Shown here: piece after piece, positions 1-58,703 of the stretch
Position numbering within the stretch: the first letter of the stretch is position 1
Layout: the number at the start of each line of letters is the position of its first letter
Assembly: GCF_053078305.1 (NCBI RefSeq)
Contig: NZ_CP166879.1
Direction: 5' to 3' (one strand)
Length of the DNA: 64,000 bases
Notes under the pieces: model-generated
The model's database searches: none
The model's input: only the letters and a program-made list of their open reading frames with translations
What the model was told of the DNA's origin: nothing
Made by a program: the position numbers and the translations under genes

Positions 1-1279
1 GAACCTGTCCGTGTGCCGCCAGTTCGCCGGTGGTACTGACAGTCAGGTTGCCCGCTGCCGCCAGACGTCCGTCATCTTTCACCCCGGCGGCCAGCAGACT
101 CCGCTCACCGCCGGTCAGACGCGCTGTCTGAATCCGGGTGTTGCGACGTGATGCCACAGAGCCTGTATGGGTGAAGACACCATCACTCTGTATCTGCGTA
201 TCCTGCCCCGCATAAACAGAACCACTGTTATGCAGCTCCCGGGTTGTCGCCAGATGCACATCCGTTTTCGCACTGATACTGCCACTGTTTTCAATACGTC
301 CGTCAGCCGTCAGGGTAACCGCCCCTGCCTGTGCACCAATATGACCGGCGTTACGAACACCCACCCCCGTTTCCGTACCGACAAGGCGAATTTTTCCGGC
401 ATACATTCCGCCAAGACTGGCCACATCCAGTGCCATCTGAGGCTGTGAAGAGACATCACCGGTCTTTTTCTCAATCTGCCCGTGCGCGATATCCACATTG
501 TTACGTCCTGTGGTCACTTTCAGATCCTGCGCCCAGATACCCGCATTAATCTTCACAGACCGGGCAATGATATCGGTATAATCCGTGCGCGAGGCATCCA
601 TCCCTTTGCCCGTAACCTGAATCTCACCACGTTCAACACTGAATCCGGTCAGACTGCCGTTTTTCATCTGCGGCTGCCCCGTGGTCAGCGTGGCCCGGTT
701 CGCATTAATAAAACCGCACCCGTCGCAACTGATGCCGGCCGGGTTCGCAATCACCACCTGCGCCTTTTTACCGGCAACCTCAACAAAACCGTTCAACTGG
801 CTGGGATTGCGACTGTTCACTTCATTAAGAATGATTCTGGCCTCTCCCTTAGCCAGCCACGGGTTCCCGGCCACCATGCCACCCAGTTGAGTCTGCACAT
901 TGTTATGGGCATTATTCAGAATGACGCCCTGGTTACCGACGTCGAACTGGCTGTATGCGTTATGTGAAACCCCGCCGGCAGAAGGCGTCTGAATATTCAC
1001 CTGCGGAATGCCGCTGGCCGTCTGCGTAATCGTGGGCTGCTGATACCCTGGTGCGCCATGGTCTGCGACAATGCCTGCAGCACTGACAGAATGCACCATC
1101 CCCGAAGCCAGCCACAAAGAGAATGCAAGCGGCGTGACACGGCAGATACGTTGCCTGTGTGGATATCCTGTGCGGGAGGACAGTGATGTACCGGCGCGAC
1201 CGGAACGGGCAATATCTGCCACCACCATCAGCATTCCCCGGGCTTTGTTAAAAATAATGCGGTAACAATTTCTGTTCAT
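1..1279 (-). CDS. cdiA: TpsA/CdiA-like large exoprotein, N-terminal part only (start at 1279, continues beyond window start)
   Basis: Manual minus-strand translation from ATG at 1279..1277 gives MNRNCYRIIFNKARGMLMVVADIARSGR (extended signal peptide region) followed by a TPS secretion domain with ANPAGISCDGCGFINANRATLTTG; frame stays open to position 1. Absent from the ORF track because no stop lies in the window. Confidence 0.8.
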   Translation of the reverse strand, partial: MNRNCYRIIFNKARGMLMVVADIARSGRAGTSLSSRTGYPHRQRICRVTPLAFSLWLASGMVHSVSAAGIVADHGAPGYQQPTITQTASGIPQVNIQTPSAGGVSHNAYSQFDVGNQGVILNNAHNNVQTQLGGMVAGNPWLAKGEARIILNEVNSRNPSQLNGFVEVAGKKAQVVIANPAGISCDGCGFINANRATLTTGQPQMKNGSLTGFSVERGEIQVTGKGMDASRTDYTDIIARSVKINAGIWAQDLKVTTGRNNVDIAHGQIEKKTGDVSSQPQMALDVASLGGMYAGKIRLVGTETGVGVRNAGHIGAQAGAVTLTADGRIENSGSISAKTDVHLATTRELHNSGSVYAGQDTQIQSDGVFTHTGSVASRRNTRIQTARLTGGERSLLAAGVKDDGRLAAAGNLTVSTTGELAAHGQV

Positions 1280-1294
1280 TCTGATAAACCTGAC

Positions 1295-1822
1295 TTATCT
1301 CTCCGGCACATCCACAGCAAGCGGGTGCTGCACACGCCACTGGCGCGCCTCTTCACGACTGACCTGTGCACCCCGGAAATTCATCACCCGTAACCCGGTC
1401 TGCTGCCCACGGTGGTACAGCGAACGCCAGCACAGACGGGGAAAAATATCCTGCCGGACAAGACGACTCATATCCGGAGTGTGTCCAAAAGGGGCAACCC
1501 AGTCACAGACCCACATCCGGTCGCCGCTGTTCCAGTCCGACTGAGGCATGAGAATTGCCGGCTGCGTAAGATAACGCGCCTCTGCCTCCGGGCTGAGCCA
1601 GGCCTGGCTCATGAAGAAAACCGGTCGCCCCTGCTCTGTTGCCACCACATACTGTCGGTGCTTAATCACCGGCAGCAGCAGGTCCGGCAGGGTATGCAGT
1701 GGCGCATCACGATGCAGGGGGGAGTGCATCCACAACCAGACGGCCGCCCCCAGGACTTCCGCCTCATTGACCGGCTCACCGGAATACAGGGGACTCAGAA
1801 CGTCATATTTCCCGTTACGCAT
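1295..1822 (-). CDS. cdiC: HlyC-family toxin-activating lysine acyltransferase (CdiC-like)
   Basis: 175 aa ORF between cdiB and cdiA; WLWMHSPLHRD and SGDRMWVCDWVAPFGH resemble HlyC/CyaC acyltransferases as I recall them. Confidence 0.7.
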   Translation of the reverse strand: MRNGKYDVLSPLYSGEPVNEAEVLGAAVWLWMHSPLHRDAPLHTLPDLLLPVIKHRQYVVATEQGRPVFFMSQAWLSPEAEARYLTQPAILMPQSDWNSGDRMWVCDWVAPFGHTPDMSRLVRQDIFPRLCWRSLYHRGQQTGLRVMNFRGAQVSREEARQWRVQHPLAVDVPER

Positions 1823-1831
1823 GAAACTTTC

Positions 1832-3571
1832 TCAGAAATCCCGGAACAGATTAAAACCGGCTGTCACATCACTCGTCATAAAACCCGCCGGCTTTGAAAA
1901 CGGACGACCGATGAAAACGTCATAATCCGTACTGAACAGTTGCCCCCTCAGCCCCACAACACCACCGGCCAGATGACGTCCCACCAGATATTCACTGCCG
2001 GCTCCCCCCACCTCGCCGTAATCCATTCCCAGATATAACGCCTGCTCCGGCAGTGGCGTACGCCAGGCCAGGTCGTTGCGGATATACCAGCCGTTACTGG
2101 CATTCAGCGTTCGCTCCCCGTCAAAACCACGAACCGTCCAGCGGTTACCGATGGCAAACTGTTCCTGTGGGGTCAGCGGGGTATTGCTCAGCTGGCGCTG
2201 ATACCGGAAGGAATAACTGAAGGGCTGCTCTGCCAGTGTAAAGGGCAGATTAAAGGATGCATTCATCTGCAGGATCTTACTGAGCGCCGTTGCCTCACCG
2301 AAGATTTCCTCCGGTGCCGGCTGTGCACCAAACCAGCGGGTTCCCCGTTGCCAGCTGACACCAGCATCCAGTGTGGCCTGAGAAATATAATGACGGTGCT
2401 GCAGCCCAAGTCGCCAGGCCGCTGTCTGCCGGCGCTGCACCTGGATTTCCGTATCATTAATGTAGTTACGCGACCTGCGGGCCTGAACATCGTAAGTCAG
2501 CACCGTTTTCTGCGTCCCGTTACGATGCAGTACCCGGCTCAGCTGCATGCCCAGATTCTGACTCTCGCCACTGTACTGGTAATCCTCAACCGCACCAGCT
2601 ACCGTCTGATGGTAATCGTAATCACTGGCGGTGACGGAAAACTGCCAGTAACCGAAAGGCACAGAGTAATGGGCCGTGTAGTTTTTACTGCCCTTACCCC
2701 CGTAATGTGGAAAATTATGGGTGGCAGAAACATACAGCAGGTCACTCAGGGAAAAAGGATTATCCAGAGAAAATGTTATACCACCGAGATAACGCCCTGT
2801 GCTGCGGGTACCTGAATCATCAAGCGAAAACCCCAGTCGCCAGTATTTATCCTGTTTACGGGTAATAAGAATATCACTTTCCCCTGGCTGCTCACCGGGC
2901 ACAATTTCCATATCAGCCTGCACACCCGGCAGTCGTTGCATATTCTCCAGCCCCTGCTCAATGTCCCGTAAATCCAGCAGAGAACCTTCGTGTGCCGGGA
3001 ATGAGGAATACAACTGAATATAGTCATCACTGTCCGGTGTCAGACGCACATGTCGCACAACACCGGGAATAATAACCAGCCGGAGGATACCGCTTTTTAA
3101 ATCCTGCGAAGGTGCCAGAACACGGGTGGTGACATAACCATGATCGACCAGACGGTTCTGCAATGTACTCATCAGCAGATTAATTCCTTTCGCCCCCAGG
3201 CAATGCCCGACCGCCCCGTTGGCGATTTTTTGTAAAGGCAGCCAGTGTGGTAACGCATCAGCCCCCTTCAGTTCCGTCTGTTTAATCTGAAAACAGGGCG
3301 TTTCAACAGGAAAATTAATCTTATGGGCAAAAGAGCCAGGTGCAGAAAGGCGAACATCAGGGGCTGAAGGCGTCAGTTGTTGCTCAAGGGCTTCCTGACG
3401 CTGCTGCTGAATGATAAATGTATCCTCTCCACTACGCCGGATATCCGCTGCCTGAAGAGATAAAGGCGATAGTAAAACAGACATCAGTGTCAGTGACAGC
3501 AAGGACGGACAGCGCCGGAATACGCTTTGTTCCTCAGCCCTCTCGTTCCTGCAACATAATTTTCCAGTCAA
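1832..3571 (-). CDS. cdiB: TpsB/CdiB outer-membrane two-partner secretion transporter (ShlB/FhaC family)
   Basis: 579 aa ORF with N-terminal signal peptide, POTRA-like region and C-terminal aromatic-rich beta-barrel ending in F; directly upstream of cdiC and cdiA in the same orientation. Exact start codon uncertain. Confidence 0.75.
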
Positions 3572-3732
3572 ACGAAAAACCTTTTATTCATGCCATACCA
3601 ACAATCACCAGCCTCCTGACGATACCTCCCACCATGTTTTGCAGTGGTACGCTACCGCCCTTCCGGTATTTACCCACACCAACCGGTACCAGAATGCTGA
3701 GTAACAAATCCGTTCAGAATTGACTTAATTTT

Positions 3733-3808
3733 GATCATTATAGAATAATGATCTGAGCGACAGCAATATGACAGATTTATCGATCGATATAACACAAATG
3801 AACAGATC
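3733..3808. promoter_or_regulatory. Candidate regulatory region upstream of cdiB with four GATC sites and two palindromes
   Basis: GATC at 3733, 3750, 3782, 3805; perfect 9-3-9 palindrome gatcattat-aga-ataatgatc at 3733..3753; palindrome tatcgatcgata at 3778..3789; direct repeat atatcgcaaaa at 3822 and 3838. Confidence 0.3.
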
Positions 3809-4159
3809 TTTATTCTGCCGAATATCGCAAAAACAGCATATCGCAAAACTTATAACCATAATTAATGGAAAAGTGCAGAAAATTATTCCACTGAATGCTT
3901 TTAATACAGTTGGTTAGCTAAAAAAATATCATTTTTTGATTTCAGTCATTGAAAATTGCAATGCGTGACGATTCAACAGCATTTAAGTGAGTTTCAGGAT
4001 ATGGGAAGGACATGAAAGGAGGAGCGTAATAAAACACACAGGAAGAAGGGGAAAATGTTTCGTAAAAACAGAAAATTAACAGCGCACATCAGGAAACTCA
4101 GTCTCCTGATTCAGTGCTACCACATGAAAATTTAGTTAACTGTTACCGTACTAAAATTT

Positions 4160-4351
4160 ATGTCAGAAGATGTTCCATTACCGAAAGTCAATCAGCGATA
4201 CAAAGACGATCATGGTGCGCTTGTCACCGTGACCAGTGTTGAGGAAACCCGGGTGGTGTTTATGCGGGAGGGCTATCCGCATCCCTGCATGCGACCGATG
4301 TACAACTTTCTGGGAAAATTCAAACCCGAAGCTCGGGAAGAAACAGAATAA
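4160..4351 (+). CDS. Small hypothetical protein (63 aa)
   Basis: ORF only; no family recognised. Confidence 0.3.
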   Translation: MSEDVPLPKVNQRYKDDHGALVTVTSVEETRVVFMREGYPHPCMRPMYNFLGKFKPEAREETE

Positions 4352-4403
4352 AACGAAATCCCTGCCGGCAATCACACTGCCTGATGGCAGCATAATCCAC
4401 TTA

Positions 4404-4712
4404 TTAATTCTCATCCCCGGAGACAAGCCCGGAAAACCACTCCGGGTGTTCACTGTATGCCGTGTTCAGCGCATCCCAGGAAACGTTTATATAAAAGCTG
4501 TCCTGCAATTTCCGGGTAACCACCTCTGCCAGGCGGTTCCGGTTATCCACCAGTCCAGCATAACCTATCTCTGCCAGCCACTCATTCAGTTCATGTTCCA
4601 GAGACAGATTGACAATATCGTAATCGGACCTTGCCATTCCCGTTTCCTTAGCACATGTTTTCAGGCACGGGGATAAAGTATAAAGAATGTCGTACTGCTG
4701 CTGCCAGAGCAA
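4404..4712 (-). CDS. Hypothetical protein (102 aa), possibly the 3' part of a frameshifted gene
   Basis: ORF immediately downstream of 4733..5392 in another frame. Confidence 0.3.
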   Translation of the reverse strand: MLWQQQYDILYTLSPCLKTCAKETGMARSDYDIVNLSLEHELNEWLAEIGYAGLVDNRNRLAEVVTRKLQDSFYINVSWDALNTAYSEHPEWFSGLVSGDEN

Positions 4713-4732
4713 TATTCCCCCTGATGGTTGTA

Positions 4733-5392
4733 TCAGAGATGGTATGCCGGTACTTTGCGGGTTGTTCCTGTCAGGTTATCGTGCACCTCCACGGTCGTGG
4801 TCACCACCGGCATTCCGGCCTTTCTCAGCCTCAGAACATCAGCCGCAATACGCTGACTGCCAAACCAGAACAGGCCGTCCAGTGCAGTCACCAGTAAACC
4901 CGCCTCCAGTGCATACTTCAGCCGTTCACGGGGCGCTTTCACTTCCCGGGCAACCTGCTGATATGGCAATGATGTGTTTTCATTCCCAACCACGCGACGA
5001 ATACGGTGAGACAGATGATACCGGAATGTATCCGGCACACCAGAAAGGCTGGCCTTCAGGCTGTACACGCAGCCAAACCGTTTATCGTTAAACACCACAT
5101 TTTTCTGACTGATGTCCCATTCTTCACGCAGCGCGGCAATCAGTTGTGGTGTCCGGGTAAGCAACAAGCGAAAAGGCAGTTCAAAACTGGTGACGTAATC
5201 CACATTCAGCAGTGCAATACGCAGCCGTTCTTCTGGCCCGGCCTCTGTCTGCCGGCACTCCTCCAGAACATCCTGCCACTGCTGGCGAAGACAGGGCGAT
5301 TCGTTCCGTTCTGTAAAACAGTATTTATCCGCCAGATAGTCAATTCGTGTATGCATACTGAAGAGTATTCCGTATAAAGATTCAGCTGGCAA
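4733..5392 (-). CDS. Hypothetical protein (219 aa), possibly the 5' part of a frameshifted gene
   Basis: ORF in the minus-strand gene block; the next ORF starts 21 nt downstream in a different frame. Confidence 0.4.
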   Translation of the reverse strand: MPAESLYGILFSMHTRIDYLADKYCFTERNESPCLRQQWQDVLEECRQTEAGPEERLRIALLNVDYVTSFELPFRLLLTRTPQLIAALREEWDISQKNVVFNDKRFGCVYSLKASLSGVPDTFRYHLSHRIRRVVGNENTSLPYQQVAREVKAPRERLKYALEAGLLVTALDGLFWFGSQRIAADVLRLRKAGMPVVTTTVEVHDNLTGTTRKVPAYHL

Positions 5393-5444
5393 AACTTTAT
5401 CAGTCTGTAAAAACTAACGGAAGAGTCGATATTTCTCCCGTCCA

Positions 5445-5942
5445 TCACCGGATGATTGTTGCAATACCCCGTGGCATCAGAGACTGAACAGCCGTTTTTA
5501 ACGCAACGTATTGCTCTGATGTATCAGGCCGGACAACCCGAAAACACCTTTCCACCCGGCATTGTCCGCCAGCGCTTATCACCGGCCAGGTCTGTTGCAG
5601 TAAATCCGCCACTTGCGAACATGCTTCATCAACTGTAACACTGGCCCGCGGATGGCAAACACTCGTCTGGCTGAGCAGTAACAGGCAGCGTATTGTTGCT
5701 CCTCCATGTTGTTCCCGCAACCAGCGTAATACCACCGGCGATGATGGGCTGGCAGTGTGATTACGCACAGTAATAAGTTCATAAAAGGAAGTACAGAATG
5801 TCTGAATCTGTTGACCACAGACGCCTTCTGTCGAATGAAGTGTGAAGTGGATTGCCAGCAGATGTGGCCTGTGATCCACCGCCTGCTGCACAAAACGCCG
5901 GATTTCCCCCGGCTCTGAAAGTAAGGCTTCGGTTATTTGCAC
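5445..5942 (-). CDS. Hypothetical protein (165 aa)
   Basis: ORF only; may be a separate gene or a C-terminal remnant of the upstream Gp2-like gene. Confidence 0.35.
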   Translation of the reverse strand: MQITEALLSEPGEIRRFVQQAVDHRPHLLAIHFTLHSTEGVCGQQIQTFCTSFYELITVRNHTASPSSPVVLRWLREQHGGATIRCLLLLSQTSVCHPRASVTVDEACSQVADLLQQTWPVISAGGQCRVERCFRVVRPDTSEQYVALKTAVQSLMPRGIATIIR

Positions 5943-6291
5943 TATTTTATCTCTGTTGAATTTGGTTAAGTCGGTGCAGACTCATCAACACAAGTACGGT
6001 TCGATGCAAACAGCTGTGACTGGCAATATGAAAGGAATGATGAATCAGTCAGGATGACAAAGTGCCGTCTGACCGGAGGGGACACAGGAAGATTCACGGA
6101 GGGACCAGCACTAGGGAACAGCGCCACATCCCGGGTGGTACTGCTTTGATGCGCCCGGTGACACAAAGCCCGGATTGTTCCAGACATCCTGAATCAAACG
6201 CCCCAGATCAGGGGCGTCGAAATATGCCTCTCTGGCCATTATATTCCGGCGTACAGGTAGCAGGTCAGAAGTGACAATGCGTCACCTAACG

Positions 6292-6858
6292 TTAAAAGTC
6301 ACTACACCCAAGATGACGTTCAACAGCACCATGCGATTCAATGTAAGCCCGGGCTGTCTGTTCCAGTACACCAGGCTCAGCGTTGTATGTGTTAGCTGCA
6401 TCAAATACCAACGACAACACTTCAGGATACACAACCAGATGTGTAATGGAGTTATCTTCACTCAATACTTTTCCCCACGCCTGCTCAATCAGATTTCTTA
6501 GAACCACCACCTCACGACTCTTACACCAGACATCGTTATTAAGTAGCAGCACCATAAGATAAGGAGTGGTATCGTTAGCCACAGCTTCCCTACTCCAGAG
6601 ATAATATAAAGGGGTGGGCTCAACAGATTTATCTTTACGTCTCTTGCACTGCAAATATTCAGAAATGAGTCTATGCAGTTCACCAGTAAAATCAGCCATC
6701 AGAGAGGGAATGGCCTTATTAATACCCTGCCCTGGTATTAATTTAAATTGTAATAATTTAATTTCAGGATGTGTAGCTGCAGCCCGATACAGAGTTGCAA
6801 GGACACACTTTTGCCAGAGGGCGTTACAGGAAAGCTTAACATTTGATTCTGTATACAT
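6292..6858 (-). CDS. YagK/YfjJ-family (inovirus Gp2-like, DUF3296) protein
   Basis: 188 aa; segments HPEIKLLQFKLIPG, LYYLWSREAV and YLMVLLLNNDVW resemble my recollection of E. coli YfjJ/YagK. Shorter than typical (about 280 aa), so possibly truncated. Confidence 0.5.
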   Translation of the reverse strand: MYTESNVKLSCNALWQKCVLATLYRAAATHPEIKLLQFKLIPGQGINKAIPSLMADFTGELHRLISEYLQCKRRKDKSVEPTPLYYLWSREAVANDTTPYLMVLLLNNDVWCKSREVVVLRNLIEQAWGKVLSEDNSITHLVVYPEVLSLVFDAANTYNAEPGVLEQTARAYIESHGAVERHLGCSDF

Positions 6859-7329
6859 AATAAATCACCTTACAGTTACAACAGGTCAAAAACCGCTGTA
6901 GCCAGAGTTACGCTGGCCTGATGCTTTAGTGTCGAGCTTCGTCAGATAATCCAGACGTGCCAATAAGCGCTGATACTGCTCAGGGAAATCAGGAGCATTA
7001 ATATCCTGGATGTCACGTCCATTAGCAGGGAAATGAACAATGCAGCCCCCTGGATTAACTATGCAGAAATCATCCTGAGGCACTGATAAATACGGAGAGG
7101 ACTCTCGCGTATGGTTGATTGACACCACAGTGCGAATTCGGCGAATGCGAGATCACGGTACGATTCCGCACCACACTACCAATCAATACCCCGGGTTTTA
7201 TTCAGGTAAGCAGGACTGCGGATATCCGGTGTCGCGCCTTTGTGTCACGAACGGGGTGGGTGCGAAACACCAGATAAAATACAGGTTGGCAATACCTCTG
7301 AACGCCCTGAGCAGGTCGGGCATTTCGGA

Positions 7330-7755
7330 TTAAGTACTCGCACCTCCGCAGTCCTCAAACAAGTCTGGCTGGTAGCTGTAAACAGACTTCGTACATACCG
7401 CTCTGCAATAAATCCCCGTACCACAGGCCTCACAGAACTTCTTCCCATGAAAAAACTGCTCACACATCACACAATGCCACTCCAGCACGACCGGTAATGG
7501 CGATAAAAACATCGCCATATCCTCAATGTAAGGGTGGGACTTCTCCGGATTCAGCACCACACAGTCCGCCTTCTGTTGCTCACTCAGGGCATGTAAATCA
7601 TGCTCAAACCACGCCCCCTGAGCATCTGTCTGCAGAATCAACCGGCCATGGCAGGAAAGGCAGAAACACTGCCGGATATTTCTGCTGAGCGCAGAGTCGG
7701 CACTGATAATGTGCTCACCCGGCGTGATCCCCAGCCCCGTTTTTATACCGTTCAT
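7330..7755 (-). CDS. Zinc-ribbon protein, paralog B (141 aa)
   Basis: Cys clusters CFCLSCHG and WHCVMCEQ...CEACGTG, plus WFEH and LPVV motifs shared with the upstream paralog; start overlaps the upstream stop by 4 nt (ATGA). Confidence 0.55.
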   Translation of the reverse strand: MNGIKTGLGITPGEHIISADSALSRNIRQCFCLSCHGRLILQTDAQGAWFEHDLHALSEQQKADCVVLNPEKSHPYIEDMAMFLSPLPVVLEWHCVMCEQFFHGKKFCEACGTGIYCRAVCTKSVYSYQPDLFEDCGGAST

Positions 7756-8135
7756 TCTGCTCCCCCCTCCTCACTGAAGCGCCCGGTCTGGCAGTGTGTG
7801 CAGTACTGCTCCCCATAATAATCGTGGTGACATTGCCTGCAGTGCCAGCTGGCTTTACGTACTACGGGTAAGGCATCCGGGACGAATTGCTGCAGACGTT
7901 TAATCAACCGTATTTCTCTGCGTTCCGGCCTGACATAAGGGCACTCATGACCGTGCTCCGTCAGCCCTTCGTCAGCGTGTTCAAACCAGGGCCGTTCAGT
8001 GTCGTATTGCGGGTGGTATCTGAGTGCACTGCCGCAAAGGTGGCAGGTGTAGCTATCGTAAGGTGCAGTCTGTGCGGTACGGGCACCGGTCAGACGTCCG
8101 TTGCCATCAAGTGCGAGAAAAGATTTTGCGTACAT
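7752..8135 (-). CDS. Zinc-ribbon protein, paralog A (127 aa)
   Basis: Cys clusters CHLCGS and WHCRQCHH...CTHCQTG with WFEH motif; GAGGAA ribosome-binding site upstream of ATG at 8135. Confidence 0.55.
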   Translation of the reverse strand: MYAKSFLALDGNGRLTGARTAQTAPYDSYTCHLCGSALRYHPQYDTERPWFEHADEGLTEHGHECPYVRPERREIRLIKRLQQFVPDALPVVRKASWHCRQCHHDYYGEQYCTHCQTGRFSEEGGAE

Positions 8136-8507
8136 AGTATATGTTCCTCAGCCGCCAGACGACACGCAGGCAACAGCCGTCCCGGTACGGGCAGCGTGGT
8201 CAGGGTGTGAATGGCGGTTCAGTTAAAATCTGGACTGGAGTTTGGGTAAAGCAGGCTGGTTGCTGTTACAGCACTGTGGTTGTCACACAATGGCCCACTG
8301 ACGTAAAAAACAGTCAGTAAGCAGAGATGGAGATTGGGGGATGTGCTGTATCGGTTGCCGGAAGGAATGGTAAAGAATGTGTCATGGTTAAATCTCCGTA
8401 TGGTTCATACGGAATGGCCACGCCGTAAAAAATGCGCAGAGCCGCTGAAGTGGCCGCCGGAACCGACAGCAAAGATTAGCGCCAGCCCGTACTTGTCGTT
8501 CAGGGGC

Positions 8508-9107
8508 TTACACCAGAGCACATATCCCCGGCAGGGGGCTGTCCAGTCGTGGTCGACCACGGTTACTTTTTTCAGGAAGCCCGCTGCATTTCAGGATGAT
8601 GCCACATTCTTTCTGTTCCCGTTTGGCCAGGTAGCTGATGGCATAGCGTAAATCATTCACCGCTTTGTGATCTGAATAGTGAATGACGTGGTTAATGTTT
8701 ACCGGATAATTTTTATTAAACCGGCACCAGTGGTAGTAACCATTACCATCGGTAACCCGCCTCCAGATATCTCCCATCAATCTGGATACCAGATACGAAC
8801 TCCTGTGGATCTGACCGTTCAGATAGCCCACAAAATGAATGTGAAGCCCTTTACGTTCTGTATATTCCATCACCCAGGCATACCCGACCAGTTTCTCTCC
8901 CACCTCGTTAATCAGTTGCAGCATCTCCGCGCACATGGCGTACCTGCAGGCGCATCCGTAGCTGAATGTGTTTTTTCGGTAAGCAAAATCCATTCTGAAC
9001 GGTAACAGCTTCGAATAGACCCCGAATAATGAATCCAGATGCTGGTTAAAGTGTGTCAGGAGCTGGGGAGCCATTTCGTAAGCGGGATTGGTGTTATAAG
9101 TTTGCAT
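8508..9107 (-). CDS. YagK/YfjJ-family (inovirus Gp2-like) protein, second paralog
   Basis: 199 aa; motifs YAWVMEYTERKGLHIHFVGYLNG resemble the conserved core of the YfjJ/YagK family; GAGGAA ribosome-binding site before ATG at 9107. Confidence 0.5.
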   Translation of the reverse strand: MQTYNTNPAYEMAPQLLTHFNQHLDSLFGVYSKLLPFRMDFAYRKNTFSYGCACRYAMCAEMLQLINEVGEKLVGYAWVMEYTERKGLHIHFVGYLNGQIHRSSYLVSRLMGDIWRRVTDGNGYYHWCRFNKNYPVNINHVIHYSDHKAVNDLRYAISYLAKREQKECGIILKCSGLPEKSNRGRPRLDSPLPGICALV

Positions 9108-9338
9108 GTTTCTTCCTCGTGTTCTGTAACACAGGAAGAAGCGCTGGCGTAATTTTTGAAGAAAACGTTATCACACGAAGACGTGCAAGTTCACAACTCC
9201 CCGGGCGCCACAGAGAAAGTGGGAGCACACCCGGGTATCAGAACCATACAGAGAACGGCATACGTGACTGTCAATCACAGCGCAGATAATATCTGATATG
9301 ATGTCATTGTGACGACTGTACTTCATCAGAAACATTTA

Positions 9339-9551
9339 TCAGGTAACATATTTCCAGACTGAAGCGGGAACACGATCGTAAAGTTTGTTCATGGTCAGTT
9401 CTGCCAGCCGGTGATCGACCGCAGAGTTGAAGGCTTCCATCTCCGCTGGAGTAAGCTTATAACGCGTGTGGGAAATCACTTTTTCCAGTGTCTCCCGGGA
9501 TGAACAACGACGGAACTGATACAGCCAGTCTTCTTTGGTCTTAACTTCCAT
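9339..9551 (-). CDS. Hha/YmoA-family modulator paralog (70 aa)
   Basis: C-terminal [22 protein letters not shown] is near-identical to the Hha signature as I recall it; start ATG at 9551 chosen inside the longer 117 aa ORF. Confidence 0.75.
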   Translation of the reverse strand: [70 protein letters not shown]

Positions 9552-9699
9552 TATCCTCTCGTTATTTTGTGCTGTGATTAACGTTAACATAATACCGTCA
9601 GAATAACGTATTCTGACGTCATCCCGGAAGTCTTTCCACTTTCCTGTCTCTCCGGTAATAAAACATTTTAAATGCTGAAGGCATAACGCCATAACCAGA

Positions 9700-10190
9700 T
9701 ATTACAAGTAACGTGGCGTTACACGTGTTAATGCATTACAGAAGTAACAGAGACAATCAGATAGTAAACAACACTCCGGAAGACTGTTTAATGGCATAGG
9801 TATACTTTTTACGATCACAATATTATATCACTACCAAAATTCATCAGGTGAACTGCAAAAGCAAAACATTAACAGTTCTCCCTCAACCACCGTTATCCAC
9901 ACTATTGACACTGACGATTCATACTCTTATTTAGCCAGAATAGCCTCCACACAACAGGCATTACTTAACAAAGTACATTACAGTCAGTGTGTGTACATGA
10001 CAGATTTATATTCAGGTGTTACGAGATTACATTACAGCAGAGAGAGTTAAGGACAGAGTTACAAGTACTACTACAGAGAATATCTCTGTACAGATACTTC
10101 TATGAGCATATCTTTATGAGAGATCCGTCTACAGGATTGGGTTACAAGGTGGAATTACAGAATTACAGGGTTCATTTACATAACCATACT
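9700..10190. repeat. AT-rich divergent intergenic region with about ten degenerate TTACA(G/A) repeats
   Basis: ATTACAG at about 9734, 9975, 10028, 10153, 10161; GTTACAAG at 10057 and 10141; related copies at 9710 and 9719; lies between the minus-strand block ending at hha and the plus-strand block starting at 10503. Confidence 0.6.
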
Positions 10191-10502
10191 TCTATAAATA
10201 ATACTAATTAACCTTAATTATTTTTTAATAGTACATGAACTGCCTGTAGCTGTAACGACAAATCACCCAAAATGAAAAATACTGGTTATCACGGTTCAGA
10301 GAACTCGTATAAGTACCTCCCCCCTGAGCAATGCTTCATTTTCTGTGGTTCTATGTGATAGAGTTATGCTGAGTACAGTGGCAGTAACCCTGCTTTCCAC
10401 CACTCAATGACAAAACACACAAAAAATTAATTATATGAATTAACAGTGTTTTTTATGGAATGTTATGCATATCAACCAATATGATTAACAGAAAACTTCA
10501 TC

Positions 10503-11294
10503 ATGACAACACGTATAACTTTCAATATGACCAGTGATGAGACGCTGCGAATTGTGGATGAGTACTGTCATACCCACAAACTTTCGCGCTCTAAGGTAAT
10601 CGACGCATTACTCAGCGCCACAGCACCTGTCCTTAACGATATTAACTGTTATTATCAACTTGCAGGCAAACTGCAGTCACGCTTATTAAATGGAGTGTAT
10701 CAACGGGATCTTCCTCACAAACGCAATGTCGTCAGTGCAGAGAAGTATTGTCTGGAAATCTGGGAAAACAAACTTTTCACCAAAAGAATCCTGGAGTTTG
10801 ACAGTTCAAATGGTGTTCTATACGCGCTGAAACATAAAAGACACTATCGCCGGGATAAGATGATTGGACGGGTTGAAAGCCGGCGTATCAAAGACATTTG
10901 CGAATACCAGATGCAACTGTCCGGGGAGAAGGCAAAATATGCCTGTTTTATTTATATTGAAAGAACAATATACAATCACGATAATCCATCCGGTGAAACA
11001 CCTGTAAAAGCGGCTGTTGGTAATGCAGTCATCCTGCTGGCAAAAGACGTGATATATGACGAGTACTTTTTTGATCTGCGGCAGTCATTTTTCGTGAGCG
11101 TTAAAGATTTGATGGCCTCTGGCGCAAAAGGTATTCCGGAGACACAGAAATATCCGGACGTTTATTGCTGGATCCCGCTTTTCTCCATAAATTCCGGCGT
11201 GGTCATTACCCCGGTCTATAAAATTGATCCCCGGAAACCCGTAACGGTAAAAAAACCGGATCAGATCACTGTTGTTTGTAATTACAGAGAATAA
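10503..11294 (+). CDS. Hypothetical protein with N-terminal ribbon-helix-helix-like domain (263 aa)
   Basis: N-terminus TRITFNMTSDETLRIVDEYCHTHKLSRSKVIDALL has a beta-strand plus two-helix RHH pattern; the remaining 220 aa is unrecognised. Confidence 0.5.
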   Translation: MTTRITFNMTSDETLRIVDEYCHTHKLSRSKVIDALLSATAPVLNDINCYYQLAGKLQSRLLNGVYQRDLPHKRNVVSAEKYCLEIWENKLFTKRILEFDSSNGVLYALKHKRHYRRDKMIGRVESRRIKDICEYQMQLSGEKAKYACFIYIERTIYNHDNPSGETPVKAAVGNAVILLAKDVIYDEYFFDLRQSFFVSVKDLMASGAKGIPETQKYPDVYCWIPLFSINSGVVITPVYKIDPRKPVTVKKPDQITVVCNYRE

Positions 11295-11676
11295 TTTCAG
11301 TCTTCTCCGTTCACCGCAACAGTGTTTACCTCTGCTTTATCTTCCTTTCAGTAAATACAAACCACAGCTCTGGCAGGTACAGGGCGTGGTTTATCTCCGA
11401 TACTCCCCTGCGCAGTAATAATCATCACTGAAAATACTGATTCCGTCACGGCAAAACGCCATCCCATATTCCGGCAACACAAAATCATCTTCCGTTTATA
11501 CCGGCTTCACTGACAAAACAGACAACCTGTATTGCCTGTACACAACAGTTTCTCTCCTGGCAGGAATATTCCTCAACTTTTTTACGTTTCTCCCCGGTTG
11601 TTATGCCGGTGAAGGTGGTGCGTCGTTTTCATCACCAACGCCGGTTGAGATTAACAACATCCGGAGGAACATTTTC

Positions 11677-11883
11677 ATGAAGACCCCAGTTTCGCTGATG
11701 GATGACCAGATGGTCGACATGGCGTTTATCACTCAACTGACCGGCTTAACCGATAAGTGGTTTTATAAGCTCATCAAAGATGGTGCCTTTCCGGCCCCCA
11801 TCAAACTCGGCCGCAGCTCCCGATGGCTGAAAAGTGAAGTGGAAGCCTGGTTGCAGGCGCGTATTGCACAATCCCGTCCGTAA
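11677..11883 (+). CDS. alpA: AlpA-family prophage transcriptional regulator
   Basis: 68 aa; helix-turn-helix segment FITQLTGLTDKWFYKLIKDGAFPAPIKLGRSSRWLKSEVEAWL typical of AlpA; GGAGG ribosome-binding site at 11664. Confidence 0.8.
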   Translation: MKTPVSLMDDQMVDMAFITQLTGLTDKWFYKLIKDGAFPAPIKLGRSSRWLKSEVEAWLQARIAQSRP

Positions 11884-11968
11884 TTACTGACCGTTATCCG
11901 TTCAACCGCAGCGAATACACTATCCGGCCTCCGGAGGCATTCTGCTGCGTGCTAAAGGAGAGAATATT

Positions 11969-12541
11969 ATGCAAAAACTTGAAAACCGGTGTGATCTGCT
12001 GCTAATTCAGCATCAGAAATGGATGGCAAGTGTAACCCGGTTTATTGTCGCTCATGGAATGGGCTCTCCGCATCTTCATGGTTATCACCGCCTGACCCTG
12101 GCTCACTTTTTTCTACCGGAAAAAGGCACCATCATCTCAGTGGCACCACAGGGACTCTATCAGGTCGTCAACCCGGGAACGCCACCGTTCATTCCTGCCA
12201 TTCAGGAAGGGTTAATGACCAGCATTCAGACCCATGAAATCATGCTGCTTACGCATTTTAATCTGGGCGGCGTTTTACTCAGTGAGCTACATCGTCTGGG
12301 CGAAAGCCGGCTGGCAAACAGGCTGAACAGTCTGCTCCGGCGTTTCGAAGATCGCGATCTCTACCACACGCTGATATGGCTGTGCTGGTATGATCTGATG
12401 TGTGCCCACTCCATGCAGCCCTGGACTGAAGAGTTAAAGCATAAATCACACACAGAGCTTGAAAGCTGGGCTGTGGCGCGCAAACGGGAAAAGCGCGAGC
12501 TTGAACTGATGATTGACGAGTATCTGTTATACGCCTGTTGA
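11969..12541 (+). CDS. Hypothetical protein (190 aa)
   Basis: ORF with AAAGGAG ribosome-binding site immediately downstream of alpA; no family recognised. Confidence 0.45.
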   Translation: MQKLENRCDLLLIQHQKWMASVTRFIVAHGMGSPHLHGYHRLTLAHFFLPEKGTIISVAPQGLYQVVNPGTPPFIPAIQEGLMTSIQTHEIMLLTHFNLGGVLLSELHRLGESRLANRLNSLLRRFEDRDLYHTLIWLCWYDLMCAHSMQPWTEELKHKSHTELESWAVARKREKRELELMIDEYLLYAC

Positions 12542-14121
12542 TTCATAACGCTCCCGGGATTCCTTCCTCATCGTTGCACACAACCGGACGGCTATCTGTG
12601 GCAGTCCGCCAAATGACCCTCGCCGCATTTCGTTCTGCTGAAAACGGTACGTAGCCAGTGATACCGGAATTTCCGGAGAGGGTCGCAGGTATATTGCTTC
12701 TGTGCAATTGATGCTTATTTACATTGGATGTGGTTATTTCTGCATCCAATGCTATCGGAAAGAGATCAACCAGCAAATGGTTCCTCAAATCGTATTGATA
12801 TTTACCCGGTGCATTGAGCACCTCCATCTGACACTCCGTTCCCGCATCAAACGGCTGAACCGGAAAACGATTTGCTTTTCACGCTCCGTGGAAATTCACG
12901 AAAAAGTTATTGGGTCATTCATCGAAAAACACATGTTCTGCTGACTGGAGCCATCACCCGGAAATATACGTCAACTGAACAATAACGATTTTTTCTTTAT
13001 GGGATCCCATACACTTTCCCATACCCCTCTGAAAATCAGTCATCAACTCACCAACACATCTTCTGAAATCTGTATTAAACTTATTGCTTAAATAGATGAT
13101 ATAACACATCTTCCATTGCACGGAATCAGCGAAAACTGTCATTCTGGCAATCTTAACAAGATCATTTATCGGTTAATTTTATCAGTAAACAATGGAATAT
13201 CACACTGATAAAATGAACATTCAGGGTAAGATGATAAAATTCACATAAAAAATGCTGAAGATTATTTATTTCATGCAGATAAACGATAAAATACAAGAGA
13301 GTATATTTTTCAGTGTAAGAGTCAATCGTTCATCTCCACTGACGATCACGGTCAGCACATAAACAAAGTGAGTCCTCCTGCTTAGTCATTGCGTATCAGA
13401 AACTAAAAAACAAAAGATTCTGTAAACAACGTGACATTTTTTATGACATTTCCCGAATACAGATATATCAACAAACAGTAGTCAGCGTTGAATTAATAAG
13501 TTTTACAGGGCTATACGTATCTTATAAAACCACTCAACGACCATCATCACCTGACTATTTAGCGGGAGTATCATCTGTATAAATCCCTAAATAATAACAC
13601 CTGTTATTAAAATAAGAATGCTGTCAGCAGTAAATTATTAACATAACACCTGTCCACTCTATCTGTTCTTCTAACTCAACCGGCATCGAAAATATTGCCT
13701 GATTAGTGCATCATAGCCTTCTTTTTTCTTTCCCGACCATCAAAACAAATACAACATTTACAACCACACAATAAAACAAAACTAAAACATAAGATTAACA
13801 ACACCAATCAACAGGAAAACACTGAATATTGAGGTGCCCTGTAACCTGGAGAGCGCATACGGCGCATGTGATCAACACAGCCCATTCTTTTCTGTCATCC
13901 CCCAAATGCAGAACAAACAAGCATAACCTAATGAATATAAAATAAAATATTATTTTTCACCATCATAAAAACATCAATGTATCTTTATATAAAAACACTG
14001 ACAACATGACATAAACATTTAAAAACATAAACAAATCACAACAAAAACATTTGATAATCACTTAGTGACAAAATAAAATTGAGACGATTTTGTTATAAGA
14101 GAGGCGCCATGGAGTGAGATA

Positions 14122-16239: not shown

Positions 16240-16280
16240 ACGATCGATAAAACAGATATCGATCGTTACTATCGATCGTT
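16240..16280 (+). promoter_or_regulatory. agn43 (flu) regulatory region with three GATC sites (OxyR / Dam phase-variation switch)
   Basis: GATC at 16242, 16261 and 16274 within cgatcgataaaacagatatcgatcgttactatcgatcg, about 220 bp upstream of the flu start; matches the known agn43 switch architecture. Confidence 0.75.
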
Positions 16281-16494
16281 TATAGTGGTTAATGGTCTGC
16301 GAAAAGGCAGTTGAATCTCTTCATCATGCAGAACGGAATTGCACAAAACGGACTGATACTTCTCTGGCGGATGAGAGAGGGGAAGCATTTATGTCCGGGA
16401 AAAACCACTGTATCTGACCATGCTGTTTTGTACCTGCCGGTATCCACATTTGTGGGTACCGGCTTTTTTATTCACCCTCTGTAAGGAAAAGCTG

Positions 16495-19400
16495 ATGAAA
16501 CGACATCTGAACACCAGCTACAGGCTGGTATGGAATCACATTACGGGCACCCTGGTGGTGGCCTCCGAACTGGCCCGCTCACGGGGAAAACGCGCCGGTG
16601 TGGCGGTTGCTCTGTCTCTTGCTACTGTCACGTCAGTCCCGGCACTGGCTGCTGACACGGTTGTTCAGGCAGGAGAAACCGTGAATGGCGGAACACTGGT
16701 AAACCATGACAACCAGTTTGTATCCGGAACAGCTGATGGCGTGACTGTCAGTACCGGGCTTGAGCTGGGGCCGGACAGTGACGAAAACACCGGCGGGCAA
16801 TGGATAAAAGCGGGTGGCACAGGCAGAAACACCACTGTCACCGCAAATGGTCGTCAGATTGTGCAGGCAGGAGGAACTGCCAGTGATACGGTTATTCGTG
16901 ACGGCGGGGGACAGAGCCTGAACGGGCTGGCGGTGAACACCACGCTGAATAACAGAGGCGAGCAGTGGGTTCATGAGGGCGGGGTTGCCACCGGTACAAT
17001 TATCAACCGCGACGGTTACCAGAGCGTTAAAAGTGGCGGGCTGGCAACAGGAACCATCATCAACACCGGCGCAGAAGGCGGCCCGGATTCTGACAACTCG
17101 TACACGGGTCAGAAGGTCCAGGGAACAGCAGAATCCACCACCATCAACAAAAATGGACGGCAGATTATCTTATTTTCCGGGATAGCCCGTGACACTCTCA
17201 TTTACGCAGGTGGTGACCAGTCGGTACACGGAAGGGCCCTGAATACCACACTGAATGGCGGTTACCAGTATGTGCACAAGGACGGACTTGCGCTGAACAC
17301 GGTAATTAACGAGGGGGGCTGGCAGGTTGTTAAGGCAGGTGGTGCTGTCGGTAACACCACCATAAATCAGAACGGTGAACTGAGAGTACATGCCGGCGGG
17401 GAAGCAACTGCAGTCACCCAGAACACGGGCGGTGCACTGGTTACCAGTACGGCTGCAACCGTTACCGGCATAAACCGCCTGGGAGCATTCTCCGTTGTGG
17501 CGGGTAAGGCTGATAATGTCGTACTGGAAAATGGCGGACGTCTGGATGTGCTGAGCGGACACACAGCCACTAATACCCGTGTGGATGATGGCGGAACGCT
17601 GGATGTCCGCAACGGTGGTGCCGCCACCACCGTATCCATGGGGAATGGCGGTGTACTGCTGGCCGATTCCGGGGCCGCTGTCAGTGGTACCCGGAGCGAC
17701 GGAAAGGCATTCAGTATCGGAGGCGGTCAGGCGGATGCCCTGATGCTGGAAAAAGGCAGTTCCTTCACACTGAACGCCGGTGATACGGCCACGGATACCA
17801 CGGTAAATGGCGGACTGTTCACCGCCAGAGGGGGCTCGCTGGCGGGCACCACCACGCTGAATAACGGTGCCACGCTTACCCTTTCCGGGAAAACGGTGAA
17901 TAACGATACCCTGACCATCCATGAAGGTGATGCACTCCTGCAGGGAGGCGCTCTTACCGGTAACGGCAGGGTGGAAAAATCAGGAAGTGGCACACTCACT
18001 GTCAGCAACACCACACTCATCCAGAAAACCGTCAACCTGAATGAAGGCACGCTGACGCTGAACGACAGTACCGTCACCACGGATGTCATCGCTCAGCGCG
18101 GCACGGCCCTGAAGCTGACCGGCAGCACAGTGCTGAACGGTGCCATTGACCCCACGAATGTCACCCTGACATCCGGTGCCACCTGGAATATCCCCGATAA
18201 CGCCACGGTGCAGTCGGTGGTGGATGACCTCAGCCATGCCGGACAGATTCATTTCACCTCCACCCGCACAGGGAAGTTCGTACCGGCAACCCTGAAAGTG
18301 AAAAACCTGAACGGGCAGAATGGCACCATCAGCCTGCGTGTACGCCCGGATATGGCACAGAACAATGCTGACAGACTGGTCATTGACGGCGGCAGGGCAA
18401 CCGGAAAAACCATCCTGAACATGGTGAACGCCGGCAACAGTGCGTCGGGGCTGGCGACCAGCGGTAAGGGTATTCAGGTGGTGGAAGCCATTAACGGTGC
18501 CACCACGGAGGAAGGGGCCTTTGTCCAGGGGAACAGGCTGCAGGCCGGGGCCTTTAACTACTCCCTCAACCGGGACAGTGATGAGAGCTGGTATCTGCGC
18601 AGTGAAAATGCTTATCGTGCAGAAGTCCCCCTGTATGCCTCCATGCTGACACAGGCAATGGACTATGACCGGATTCTGGCAGGCTCCCGCAGCCATCAGA
18701 CCGGTGTAAACGGTGAAAATAACAGCGTCCGTCTCAGCATTCAGGGCGGCCATCTCGGTCACGATAACAACGGCGGTATTGTCCGTGGGGCCACGCCGGA
18801 AAGCAGCGGCAGCTATGGCTTCGTCCGCCTGGAGGGTGACCTGCTGAGAACAGAGGTTGCCGGTATGTCTCTGACGACAGGGGTGTATGGTGCTGCAGGC
18901 CATTCTTCCGTTGATGTTAAGAATGATGACGGCTCCCGTGCCGGCACGGTCCGGGATGATGCCGGCAGTCTGGGCGGATACCTGAATCTGGTACACAACG
19001 CCTCCGGCCTGTGGGCTGACATTGTGGCCCAGGGAACCCGCCACAGCATGAAAGCGTCATCGGACAATAACGACTTCCGCGCCCGGGGCTGGGGCTGGCT
19101 GGGCTCACTGGAAACCGGTCTGCCCTTCAGTATCACTGACAATCTGATGCTGGAGCCGCAACTGCAGTACACCTGGCAGGGACTCTCCCTGGATGACGGC
19201 CAGGATAACGCCGGTTATGTGAAGTTCGGGCATGGCAGTGCACAACATGTGCGTGCCGGTTTCCGTCTGGGCAGCCACAACGATATGACCTTTGGTGAAG
19301 GCACCTCATCCCGTGACACCCTGCGCGGCAGTGCCAAACACAGTGTGCGTGAACTGCCGGTGAACTGGTGGGTACAGCCTTCTGTTATCCGCACCTTCAG

Positions 19401-19617
19401 CTCCCGGGGGGACATGAGCATGGGTACAGCCGCAGCCGGCAGTAACATGACGTTCTCACCGTCACAGAATGGTACGTCACTGGACCTGCAGGCCGGACTG
19501 GAAGCCCGTGTCCGGGAAAATATCACCCTGGGCGTTCAGGCTGGTTATGTCCACAGCGTCAGCGGCAGCAGCGCTGAAGGCTATAACGGTCAGGCCACGC
19601 TGAATGTGACCTTCTGA
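16495..19617 (+). CDS. flu: Antigen 43 self-associating autotransporter
   Basis: N-terminus MKRHLNTSYRLVWNHITGTLVVASELARSRGKRAGVAVALSLA is the Ag43 signal peptide; repetitive alpha domain and C-terminal beta-barrel ending NVTF. Start set at ATG 16495 rather than the track start 16420. Confidence 0.95.
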   Translation: MKRHLNTSYRLVWNHITGTLVVASELARSRGKRAGVAVALSLATVTSVPALAADTVVQAGETVNGGTLVNHDNQFVSGTADGVTVSTGLELGPDSDENTGGQWIKAGGTGRNTTVTANGRQIVQAGGTASDTVIRDGGGQSLNGLAVNTTLNNRGEQWVHEGGVATGTIINRDGYQSVKSGGLATGTIINTGAEGGPDSDNSYTGQKVQGTAESTTINKNGRQIILFSGIARDTLIYAGGDQSVHGRALNTTLNGGYQYVHKDGLALNTVINEGGWQVVKAGGAVGNTTINQNGELRVHAGGEATAVTQNTGGALVTSTAATVTGINRLGAFSVVAGKADNVVLENGGRLDVLSGHTATNTRVDDGGTLDVRNGGAATTVSMGNGGVLLADSGAAVSGTRSDGKAFSIGGGQADALMLEKGSSFTLNAGDTATDTTVNGGLFTARGGSLAGTTTLNNGATLTLSGKTVNNDTLTIHEGDALLQGGALTGNGRVEKSGSGTLTVSNTTLIQKTVNLNEGTLTLNDSTVTTDVIAQRGTALKLTGSTVLNGAIDPTNVTLTSGATWNIPDNATVQSVVDDLSHAGQIHFTSTRTGKFVPATLKVKNLNGQNGTISLRVRPDMAQNNADRLVIDGGRATGKTILNMVNAGNSASGLATSGKGIQVVEAINGATTEEGAFVQGNRLQAGAFNYSLNRDSDESWYLRSENAYRAEVPLYASMLTQAMDYDRILAGSRSHQTGVNGENNSVRLSIQGGHLGHDNNGGIVRGATPESSGSYGFVRLEGDLLRTEVAGMSLTTGVYGAAGHSSVDVKNDDGSRAGTVRDDAGSLGGYLNLVHNASGLWADIVAQGTRHSMKASSDNNDFRARGWGWLGSLETGLPFSITDNLMLEPQLQYTWQGLSLDDGQDNAGYVKFGHGSAQHVRAGFRLGSHNDMTFGEGTSSRDTLRGSAKHSVRELPVNWWVQPSVIRTFSSRGDMSMGTAAAGSNMTFSPSQNGTSLDLQAGLEARVRENITLGVQAGYVHSVSGSSAEGYNGQATLNVTF

Positions 19618-58404: not shown

Positions 58405-58480
<76 letters not shown>

Positions 58481-58515
58481 TTGGGTGGTCTGTGCCTTAC
58501 AGCACTTTCAAATTT

Positions 58516-58591
<76 letters not shown>

Positions 58592-58627
58592 TTGGGTGGT
58601 CTGTGCTTTGCAGCACTTTTCAAATTT

Positions 58628-58703
<76 letters not shown>

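Follow-up and report, generated by a model that had tools for sequence, protein, structure and literature searches.

A probable class IV contact-dependent growth inhibition operon, cdiB-cdiC-cdiA-cdiI, with a predicted group 3 ionophore toxin on a chromosomal island of Escherichia coli

The first 3571 nucleotides of a 64,000-nucleotide stretch of contig NZ_CP166879.1 (RefSeq assembly GCF_053078305.1; the stretch at its full length is termed the window) are read here as the first 3.6 kb, on the promoter side, of an intact class IV contact-dependent growth inhibition (CDI) operon, cdiB-cdiC-cdiA-cdiI, on a chromosomal island of Escherichia coli (probability about 0.93). The class IV cdiBCAI system is not new: it is described in PMC8510554 (Halvorsen et al., mBio 2021), and the toxin of the present locus is catalogued in PMC11630599 (Halvorsen et al., PLoS Genet 2024). 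The gene order, domains, catalytic dyad, identity of CdiC and the complete cdiA and cdiI genes of a sequence-identical assembly were obtained directly. What is said of lipidation, of a lipopolysaccharide (LPS) receptor, of ionophore action, of a need for AcrB and of immunity is extrapolated from the literature.

Class IV cdi loci are defined by a cdiC cistron between cdiB and cdiA (PMC8510554), and such an extra cistron is found here, with all genes on the minus strand. The genes include: (i) cdiB (1832-3571), encoding an Omp85/TpsB outer-membrane transporter, with a longest open reading frame (ORF) of 579 codons from a TTG, (ii) cdiC (1295-1822), encoding a toxin-activating lysine acyltransferase (TAAT/HlyC family) of 175 amino acids, and (iii) the 5' part of cdiA (1279-1), encoding the class IV CdiA effector, which is open from an ATG at 1279 to window position 1 and is cut by the window edge after codon 426 of 2981. 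Gaps of 9 nt and 15 nt separate cdiB from cdiC and cdiC from cdiA, respectively. The three-gene pattern is not due to chance, since 3.7 kb of the window recurs at 99.1-99.4% identity in chromosomal loci of 189 of the 5426 complete E. coli genomes. The ORFs on the plus strand of 1-3571 are, without exception, antisense to cdiB, cdiC or cdiA and are treated as non-coding.

CdiB has two POTRA domains and a ShlB-type barrel (Pfam POTRA_2, 5e-22; POTRA_3, 2.8e-17; ShlB, 2.2e-109); an NCBIfam search of the same protein returns a sub-threshold BamA match only. CdiA begins with MNRNCYRIIFNKARGMLMVVADIARSGR and carries, within the 426 residues encoded in the window, an ESPR extended signal peptide (residues 1-38, nt 1279-1166, minus strand; Pfam, 2.2e-10), a two-partner secretion (TPS) domain (residues 68-330, nt 1078-290, minus strand; Pfam, 1.1e-57) and a first FHA-1 (haemagglutinin) repeat (Pfam Fil_haemagg, 1e-4). 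A TpsB protein that combines two POTRA domains with an Omp85/ShlB barrel, next to a TpsA protein with an N-terminal TPS domain, places the pair among the two-partner (type Vb) secretion systems. An earlier note, made from the letters of the DNA, had proposed three co-oriented minus-strand genes for a TpsB transporter, an HlyC-type lysine acyltransferase of 175 amino acids and the ESPR/TPS start of a large exoprotein; the ORFs and Pfam profiles bear out all of these, and the N-terminal residues of CdiA are exactly those quoted there, the start codon lying one base away (1279 rather than 1278).

The cdiC product matches the Pfam HlyC profile (PF02794) at 7.7e-32 over the whole model, retains the catalytic dyad His37/Asp107 and has as its best solved relative ApxC (PDB 4WHN; 5e-27), to which the SPLHR and DW.APFG motifs align. 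CdiC is, by these features, a lysyl acyltransferase of the TAAT/HlyC family. It is identical at 175/175 positions to the RefSeq WP_001243916.1 proteins of four sampled genomes (loci L001, L002, L004 and L007), and WP_001243916.1 is the accession given for the CdiC of E. coli STEC_O31 (Fig S7 of PMC8510554). The chemistry of CdiC is an acyl-ACP-dependent lysine N-acylation that attaches 3-hydroxydecanoate to Lys1467 in the receptor-binding domain of CdiA: a mass of about +171 Da on the Lys1466-Arg1535 peptide is read as 3-hydroxydecanoate, and Lys1467 is required (PMC8510554). The H37A and D107A substitutions each abolish CdiC function, and killing is about 100-fold lower after deletion of cdiC or after either substitution (PMC8510554). 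Further sites of lipidation by CdiC are explicitly left possible by the authors of that work (PMC8510554).

By analogy with STEC_O31, the exoprotein of the present locus would be lipidated by CdiC. A lipidated exoprotein had been put forward in the earlier note, rightly, and the modification had already been demonstrated for the identical enzyme of STEC_O31 (PMC8510554). The same note had singled out the layout as uncommon. This stands in so far as the layout is that of a minority, with cdiC present in 197 of the 5426 complete E. coli genomes and always chromosomal; it does not stand as a mark of interest, since the layout defines a named, experimentally dissected class.

CdiC shares with the RTX acyltransferases HlyC, CyaC and ApxC (PF02794; 4WHN) the fold family, the His/Asp dyad and an acyl-ACP-dependent lysine N-acylation (PMC8510554). 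By contrast, the substrate of CdiC is the receptor-binding domain of a TpsA/CdiA protein, while that of the RTX acyltransferases is an RTX protoxin; the lipid is 3-hydroxydecanoate instead of C14/C16, and the sequence surroundings of the target lysine bear no relation to those in HlyA and CyaA. In RTX cytolysin operons of the hlyCABD type, the HlyC homologue is encoded beside an RTX protoxin and an ABC/MFP pair for type I secretion; no such gene is noted among the ORFs of window positions 1-8000, and the neighbours of cdiC are instead the TpsB and TpsA genes.

The remainder of cdiA is known from a second assembly. An exact look-up of the 550-amino-acid form of CdiB retrieves 13 contigs, among them JPQG01000001.1 of GCA_000736735.1 (locus L011), which aligns with window positions 1-13000 with 0 mismatches in 13000 and reaches 8.2 kb past window position 1. 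None of the complete RefSeq E. coli genomes covers window positions 1-25000 at >99%; strain GPEC1176 is the best partial match. The cdiA gene of L011 has no internal stop and encodes a product of 2981 amino acids; the toxin and immunity end thus lies outside of the window, as the earlier note had anticipated, and everything past the 426 codons in the window was recovered from L011.

The L011 CdiA has all of the landmark residues of PMC8510554 (V1269, V1328, K1466-K1467-G-K1469, R1535, P1589 and S2159). The lysines K1466, K1467 and K1469 lie within STYYYRIRKKGKDKQ, and the receptor-binding domain, outside of the window, has Lys1467 in the basic, tyrosine-rich patch that is characteristic of class IV. 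The receptor-binding domain is identical at 253/262 positions to that of L002, a sampled STEC4-like locus that carries all of the PMC8510554 landmark residues, including Cys1243. The receptor of the STEC_O31 CdiA is the LPS inner core, and waaF and waaP mutants are resistant (PMC8510554). Farther along the L011 protein, VENN is found at residue 2760 inside a Pfam PT-VENN domain (1.9e-19).

The toxin that follows VENN in L011 is 218 amino acids in length, with 17% Gly and overlapping GxxxGxxxG runs at positions 125-164 of the toxin (numbered from the residue that follows VENN). An 82-amino-acid ORF (cdiI) with two strongly hydrophobic segments overlaps the cdiA stop. The earlier note had made its reading depend on a variable C-terminal toxin and immunity pair; L011 holds a PT-VENN domain, such a toxin and a small downstream immunity ORF, the pairing of the last two being predicted from sequence. 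In L011, a 59-codon ORF (VSYGQAVSSWNQYADANNLTSEQKQAGLDKLAKGELPEG...) is also observed at 21471-21650, outside of the window and about 75 nt beyond cdiI, where the fetched sequence ends. This ORF resembles the entry-domain start of the toxin of strain C012 and looks like a truncated orphan toxin fragment.

CDI ionophores of E. coli are composed of a variable entry domain and a five-helix, glycine-zipper ionophore domain, their cognate CdiI proteins, which neutralise them, are two-helix proteins of 72-100 residues, and the group 3 toxins are reported to be AcrB-dependent (PMC11630599). Representative group 3 toxins are also reported to depolarise target cells and to be neutralised by no CdiI other than their own (PMC11630599). 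The 82-amino-acid ORF, with its two hydrophobic segments, fits this description of CdiI. The exact 2981-amino-acid CdiA is GenBank KFD79096.1, which appears in the S1 Appendix of PMC11630599 both in the EC93-seeded PSI-BLAST sheet (1e-14) and in the sheet for which the group 3 toxin of strain 94-3024 served as query (2e-56, 64% identity). Homology to the group 3 set is accompanied by the glycine-zipper-like runs and by a small CdiI with two hydrophobic segments. Judged by the listing of KFD79096.1, the features of the toxin and the AcrB report for group 3, the toxin most probably belongs to group 3, as an ionophore that needs AcrB and depolarises the membrane. It resembles the group 1 toxin of EC93 weakly, at 22% over 95 residues, a comparison that is given little weight, the EC93 sequence having been transcribed from a figure by optical character recognition.

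The present pair thus shares with the group 3 CDI ionophores of PMC11630599 a 64% identity to the group 3 query and a glycine-zipper-like GxxxGxxxG region, and with the group 3 CdiI proteins a small size (82 amino acids), a very hydrophobic character and two hydrophobic segments. It differs in that it does not appear to be among the toxin/immunity pairs assayed in that work. Given the 64% identity, the pair probably forms a separate immunity sub-group.

The names in use for these proteins suggest another function. RefSeq terms the transporter a 'ShlB/FhaC/HecB family hemolysin secretion/activation protein' and the acyltransferase 'toxin-activating', and the HlyC family is otherwise linked to RTX cytolysins; the locus could on these grounds encode a haemolysin/cytolysin-type TPS system (ShlA/HpmA-like) that is directed against host cells, with the HlyC homologue activating a pore-forming exoprotein as HlyC does HlyA. 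This is hardly credible given the PT-VENN domain, polymorphic C-terminal toxins and small immunity ORFs of L011 and six of the seven sampled relatives, and given that E. coli is killed by the STEC_O31 locus, whose CdiC is the same, and that cdiI neutralises this locus (PMC8510554).

The class IV cdiBCAI locus of STEC_O31 (PMC8510554) has the same B-C-A-I order and the same CdiC (175/175). The CdiB of the window is identical at 578/579 positions to that of loci whose CdiC carries WP_001243916.1. The N-terminus of CdiA matches the printed CdiA-STEC4 sequence bar a few residues, and the residue numbering is shared, including K1466/K1467/K1469, with the receptor-binding domain close to that of the STEC4-like L002. 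By contrast, the CdiA of the present locus is 2981 amino acids in length with an ionophore-type toxin, while CdiA-STEC4 is 2939 amino acids with an unrelated C-terminus, and the immunity genes also differ. A further difference from STEC_O31 is that the cdiA gene here is a mosaic, in which some 4 kb of the FHA-1 region is shared without change with strain C012.

The mosaic is made up of segments of distinct likeness. The cdiB-cdiC segment has 0-5 differences from the lineage in which CdiC has the STEC_O31 accession; from about window position 1100 leftwards, some 4 kb of cdiA shows 0 differences from strain C012 (L003), and the segment with the toxin and cdiI is the same as in other E. coli assemblies (L017-L020). 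The mosaic junction is in the signal-peptide-to-TPS region of cdiA, and the exact full-length CdiA occurs on a single contig of the collection. Segmental recombination between cdi loci, which is ordinary for cdi genes, is clearly exemplified by this gene. The recombinant CdiA (C012-type FHA-1, nine receptor-domain substitutions and a group 3 sub-type) might differ in its specificity for the LPS core or represent a new toxin-immunity specificity group, with CdiC perhaps lipidating further sites, although this is an unlikely prospect.

The class I-III CDI systems of E. coli (EC93, EC536 and STEC3) share with the present locus the CdiB/CdiA two-partner secretion, the cdiI immunity gene and the general layout of ESPR, TPS, FHA-1, receptor-binding domain, FHA-2, VENN and toxin. 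By contrast, these systems are without cdiC and use protein receptors (BamA, OmpC/OmpF and Tsx) instead of the LPS core; FHA-1 and the receptor-binding region have also diverged from those of class IV.

Gene order was compared in seven complete genomes sampled across the identity range. The B-C-A order is found in all seven. A full-length CdiA (2972-3037 amino acids) is found in six, with VENN at about 2760-2767 and a small ORF downstream; the cdiA gene of strain NC101 is interrupted at 2517 amino acids. At least three toxin types are represented among the CdiA proteins of the sampled relatives, and some of the downstream ORFs are annotated as 'CDI toxin immunity protein' or match Pfam CdiI_ImmP. 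In E. coli O157:H7 strain 7636 (L004 15580-23444), a type I Zorya anti-phage system (zorA1, zorB1, zorC and zorD) is immediately upstream of the class IV cdi locus, in one island.

Remnants of the locus are more widespread than the locus itself. Sequence upstream of cdiB, alone or together with a 5' cdiB stub, is kept in 1342 of the 5426 complete E. coli genomes, including O157:H7 and O111:H8 strains, and the truncation points of cdiB recur at window positions 2946, 3135 and 3442. In GPEC1176 (L008), which is without cdi genes, an IS66-family element at the 3439 breakpoint replaces everything left of window position 3439. Remnants outnumber intact loci by about 7:1 in complete E. coli genomes; the locus of the window is intact.

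RefSeq annotation by PGAP gives a different picture. The class IV cdiA is split in three, namely a 5' 'pseudogene', a small 'pseudogene' (termed 'POTRA domain-containing' or 'hypothetical') and a 'hemagglutinin repeat-containing protein' of 2360-2424 amino acids, and cdiB is split in two, namely a POTRA 'pseudogene' and a ShlB protein of 359 amino acids. This split is seen at L001 8166-19484 and its equivalents in L002, L003, L004, L006 and L007. The split pieces nonetheless translate as single frames without stops, of about 2970-3040 codons for cdiA and 579 codons for cdiB. A degraded locus, as the pseudogene flags would have it, is rejected, the same DNA reading as single uninterrupted in-frame ORFs.

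An intact-looking relic, silent or non-functional in this strain and kept on a decaying island, is a related reading. It draws on the roughly 1340 genomes with only the upstream region or a cdiB stub against the 197 with cdiC, on the IS66-family replacement in GPEC1176 and the interrupted cdiA of NC101, on a promoter scan that returned no match (see below) and on the RefSeq pseudogene flags for the pieces of cdiA and cdiB. Such a relic is nevertheless improbable: cdiB, cdiC, cdiA and cdiI are all uninterrupted ORFs in the window and L011, the catalytic dyad and Lys1467 are kept, and the pseudogene flags are annotation artefacts because the DNA translates without stops. Likewise, recombinant segments that are identical to those of other lineages suggest recent exchange, not decay.

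Upstream of cdiB, an AT-rich non-coding region (3572-4159; GC content of 0.39 compared to about 0.57 in the genes) separates cdiB from a divergent plus-strand gene for a DUF4222 protein of 63 amino acids (4160-4351). The cdi promoter is presumably within 3572-4159; a 'predicted Pcdi promoter' upstream of cdiB is mentioned, without mapping, in PMC8510554. A terminator scan gives terminator-like sites at chance level. The DUF4222 gene adjoins cdiB in most of the sampled loci (L001, L002, L003, L006, L007, L009-L011, L014 and L016) and is absent from the O157:H7 (L004) and NC101 (L005) loci.

Three codons are candidates for the start of cdiB: TTG 3571 (579 codons), TTG 3502 (556 amino acids, with a signal) and ATG 3484 (550 amino acids). 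The start at 3571 is the mechanically longest ORF and nothing more, ATG 3484 is the choice of most gene callers, and the same cdiB is called as 550, 556, 570 or 579 amino acids across different assemblies. A UUG located 18 nt upstream of the cdiB ATG, equivalent to window position 3502, has been argued to be the start (PMC8510554). The start of cdiB is probably TTG 3502 or ATG 3484.

Several points weigh against the reading as an intact class IV operon. The cdiB gene has more than one candidate start codon, and a consensus scan of the region upstream of cdiB on the minus strand finds no sigma-70-like site. No NCBIfam model is named for CdiC, for the toxin or for CdiI, and the group 3 assignment derives from a block label in a supplementary table (PMC11630599). 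The window holds just 426 of the 2981 cdiA codons; the receptor-binding domain, toxin and immunity protein described above assume that the window continues as GCA_000736735.1 beyond position 1, which is very likely because of the identity at 13000/13000 positions. The receptor-binding domain differs at 9 of 262 positions from the STEC4-like form and the gene is a recombinant mosaic, and thus the fine specificity for the receptor could differ.

The mechanism of the present system can be outlined from published work on the locus with the identical CdiC. CdiA would be exported by the Sec pathway through its ESPR signal peptide. CdiB would then recognise the TPS domain and thread CdiA across the outer membrane to form a beta-helical filament. 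CdiC, using acyl-ACP, is expected to acylate Lys1467 with 3-hydroxydecanoyl in the receptor-binding domain, which sits at the tip of the filament, and the basic, tyrosine-rich, lipidated patch may bind the phosphorylated heptose of the LPS inner core of a neighbouring cell. Delivery of the C-terminal toxin past VENN would follow LPS binding. The group 3 ionophore is predicted to enter via AcrB and depolarise the inner membrane, while the 82-amino-acid, two-helix membrane protein CdiI would protect the producer.

Beyond the operon, window positions 3439-33000 are collinear with a genomic island of GPEC1176, which is of the Ag43/YeeU-CbtA type and borders the ula operon, and the cdi genes are at one end of the island in the window. 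A 1065-amino-acid ORF at 16420-19617 corresponds to agn43, and an Rfam 'IS102 RNA' match (16240-16476) is just upstream of, and overlaps, the start of this ORF. Three tandem tRNA-Gly(GCC) genes are found at 58405-58703 on the minus strand, apparently in the chromosomal backbone, and presumably resemble the glyVXY cluster.

The strain appears to carry a complete and probably functional interbacterial weapon that is LPS-targeting and lipid-assisted, with a predicted membrane-depolarising warhead. As the system and its toxin are both described, the finding adds little past correct annotation. Annotation is, however, of consequence for this class: the RefSeq/PGAP pipeline splits class IV genes into apparent pseudogenes and, therefore, automated surveys that are based on RefSeq will undercount functional class IV CDI loci.

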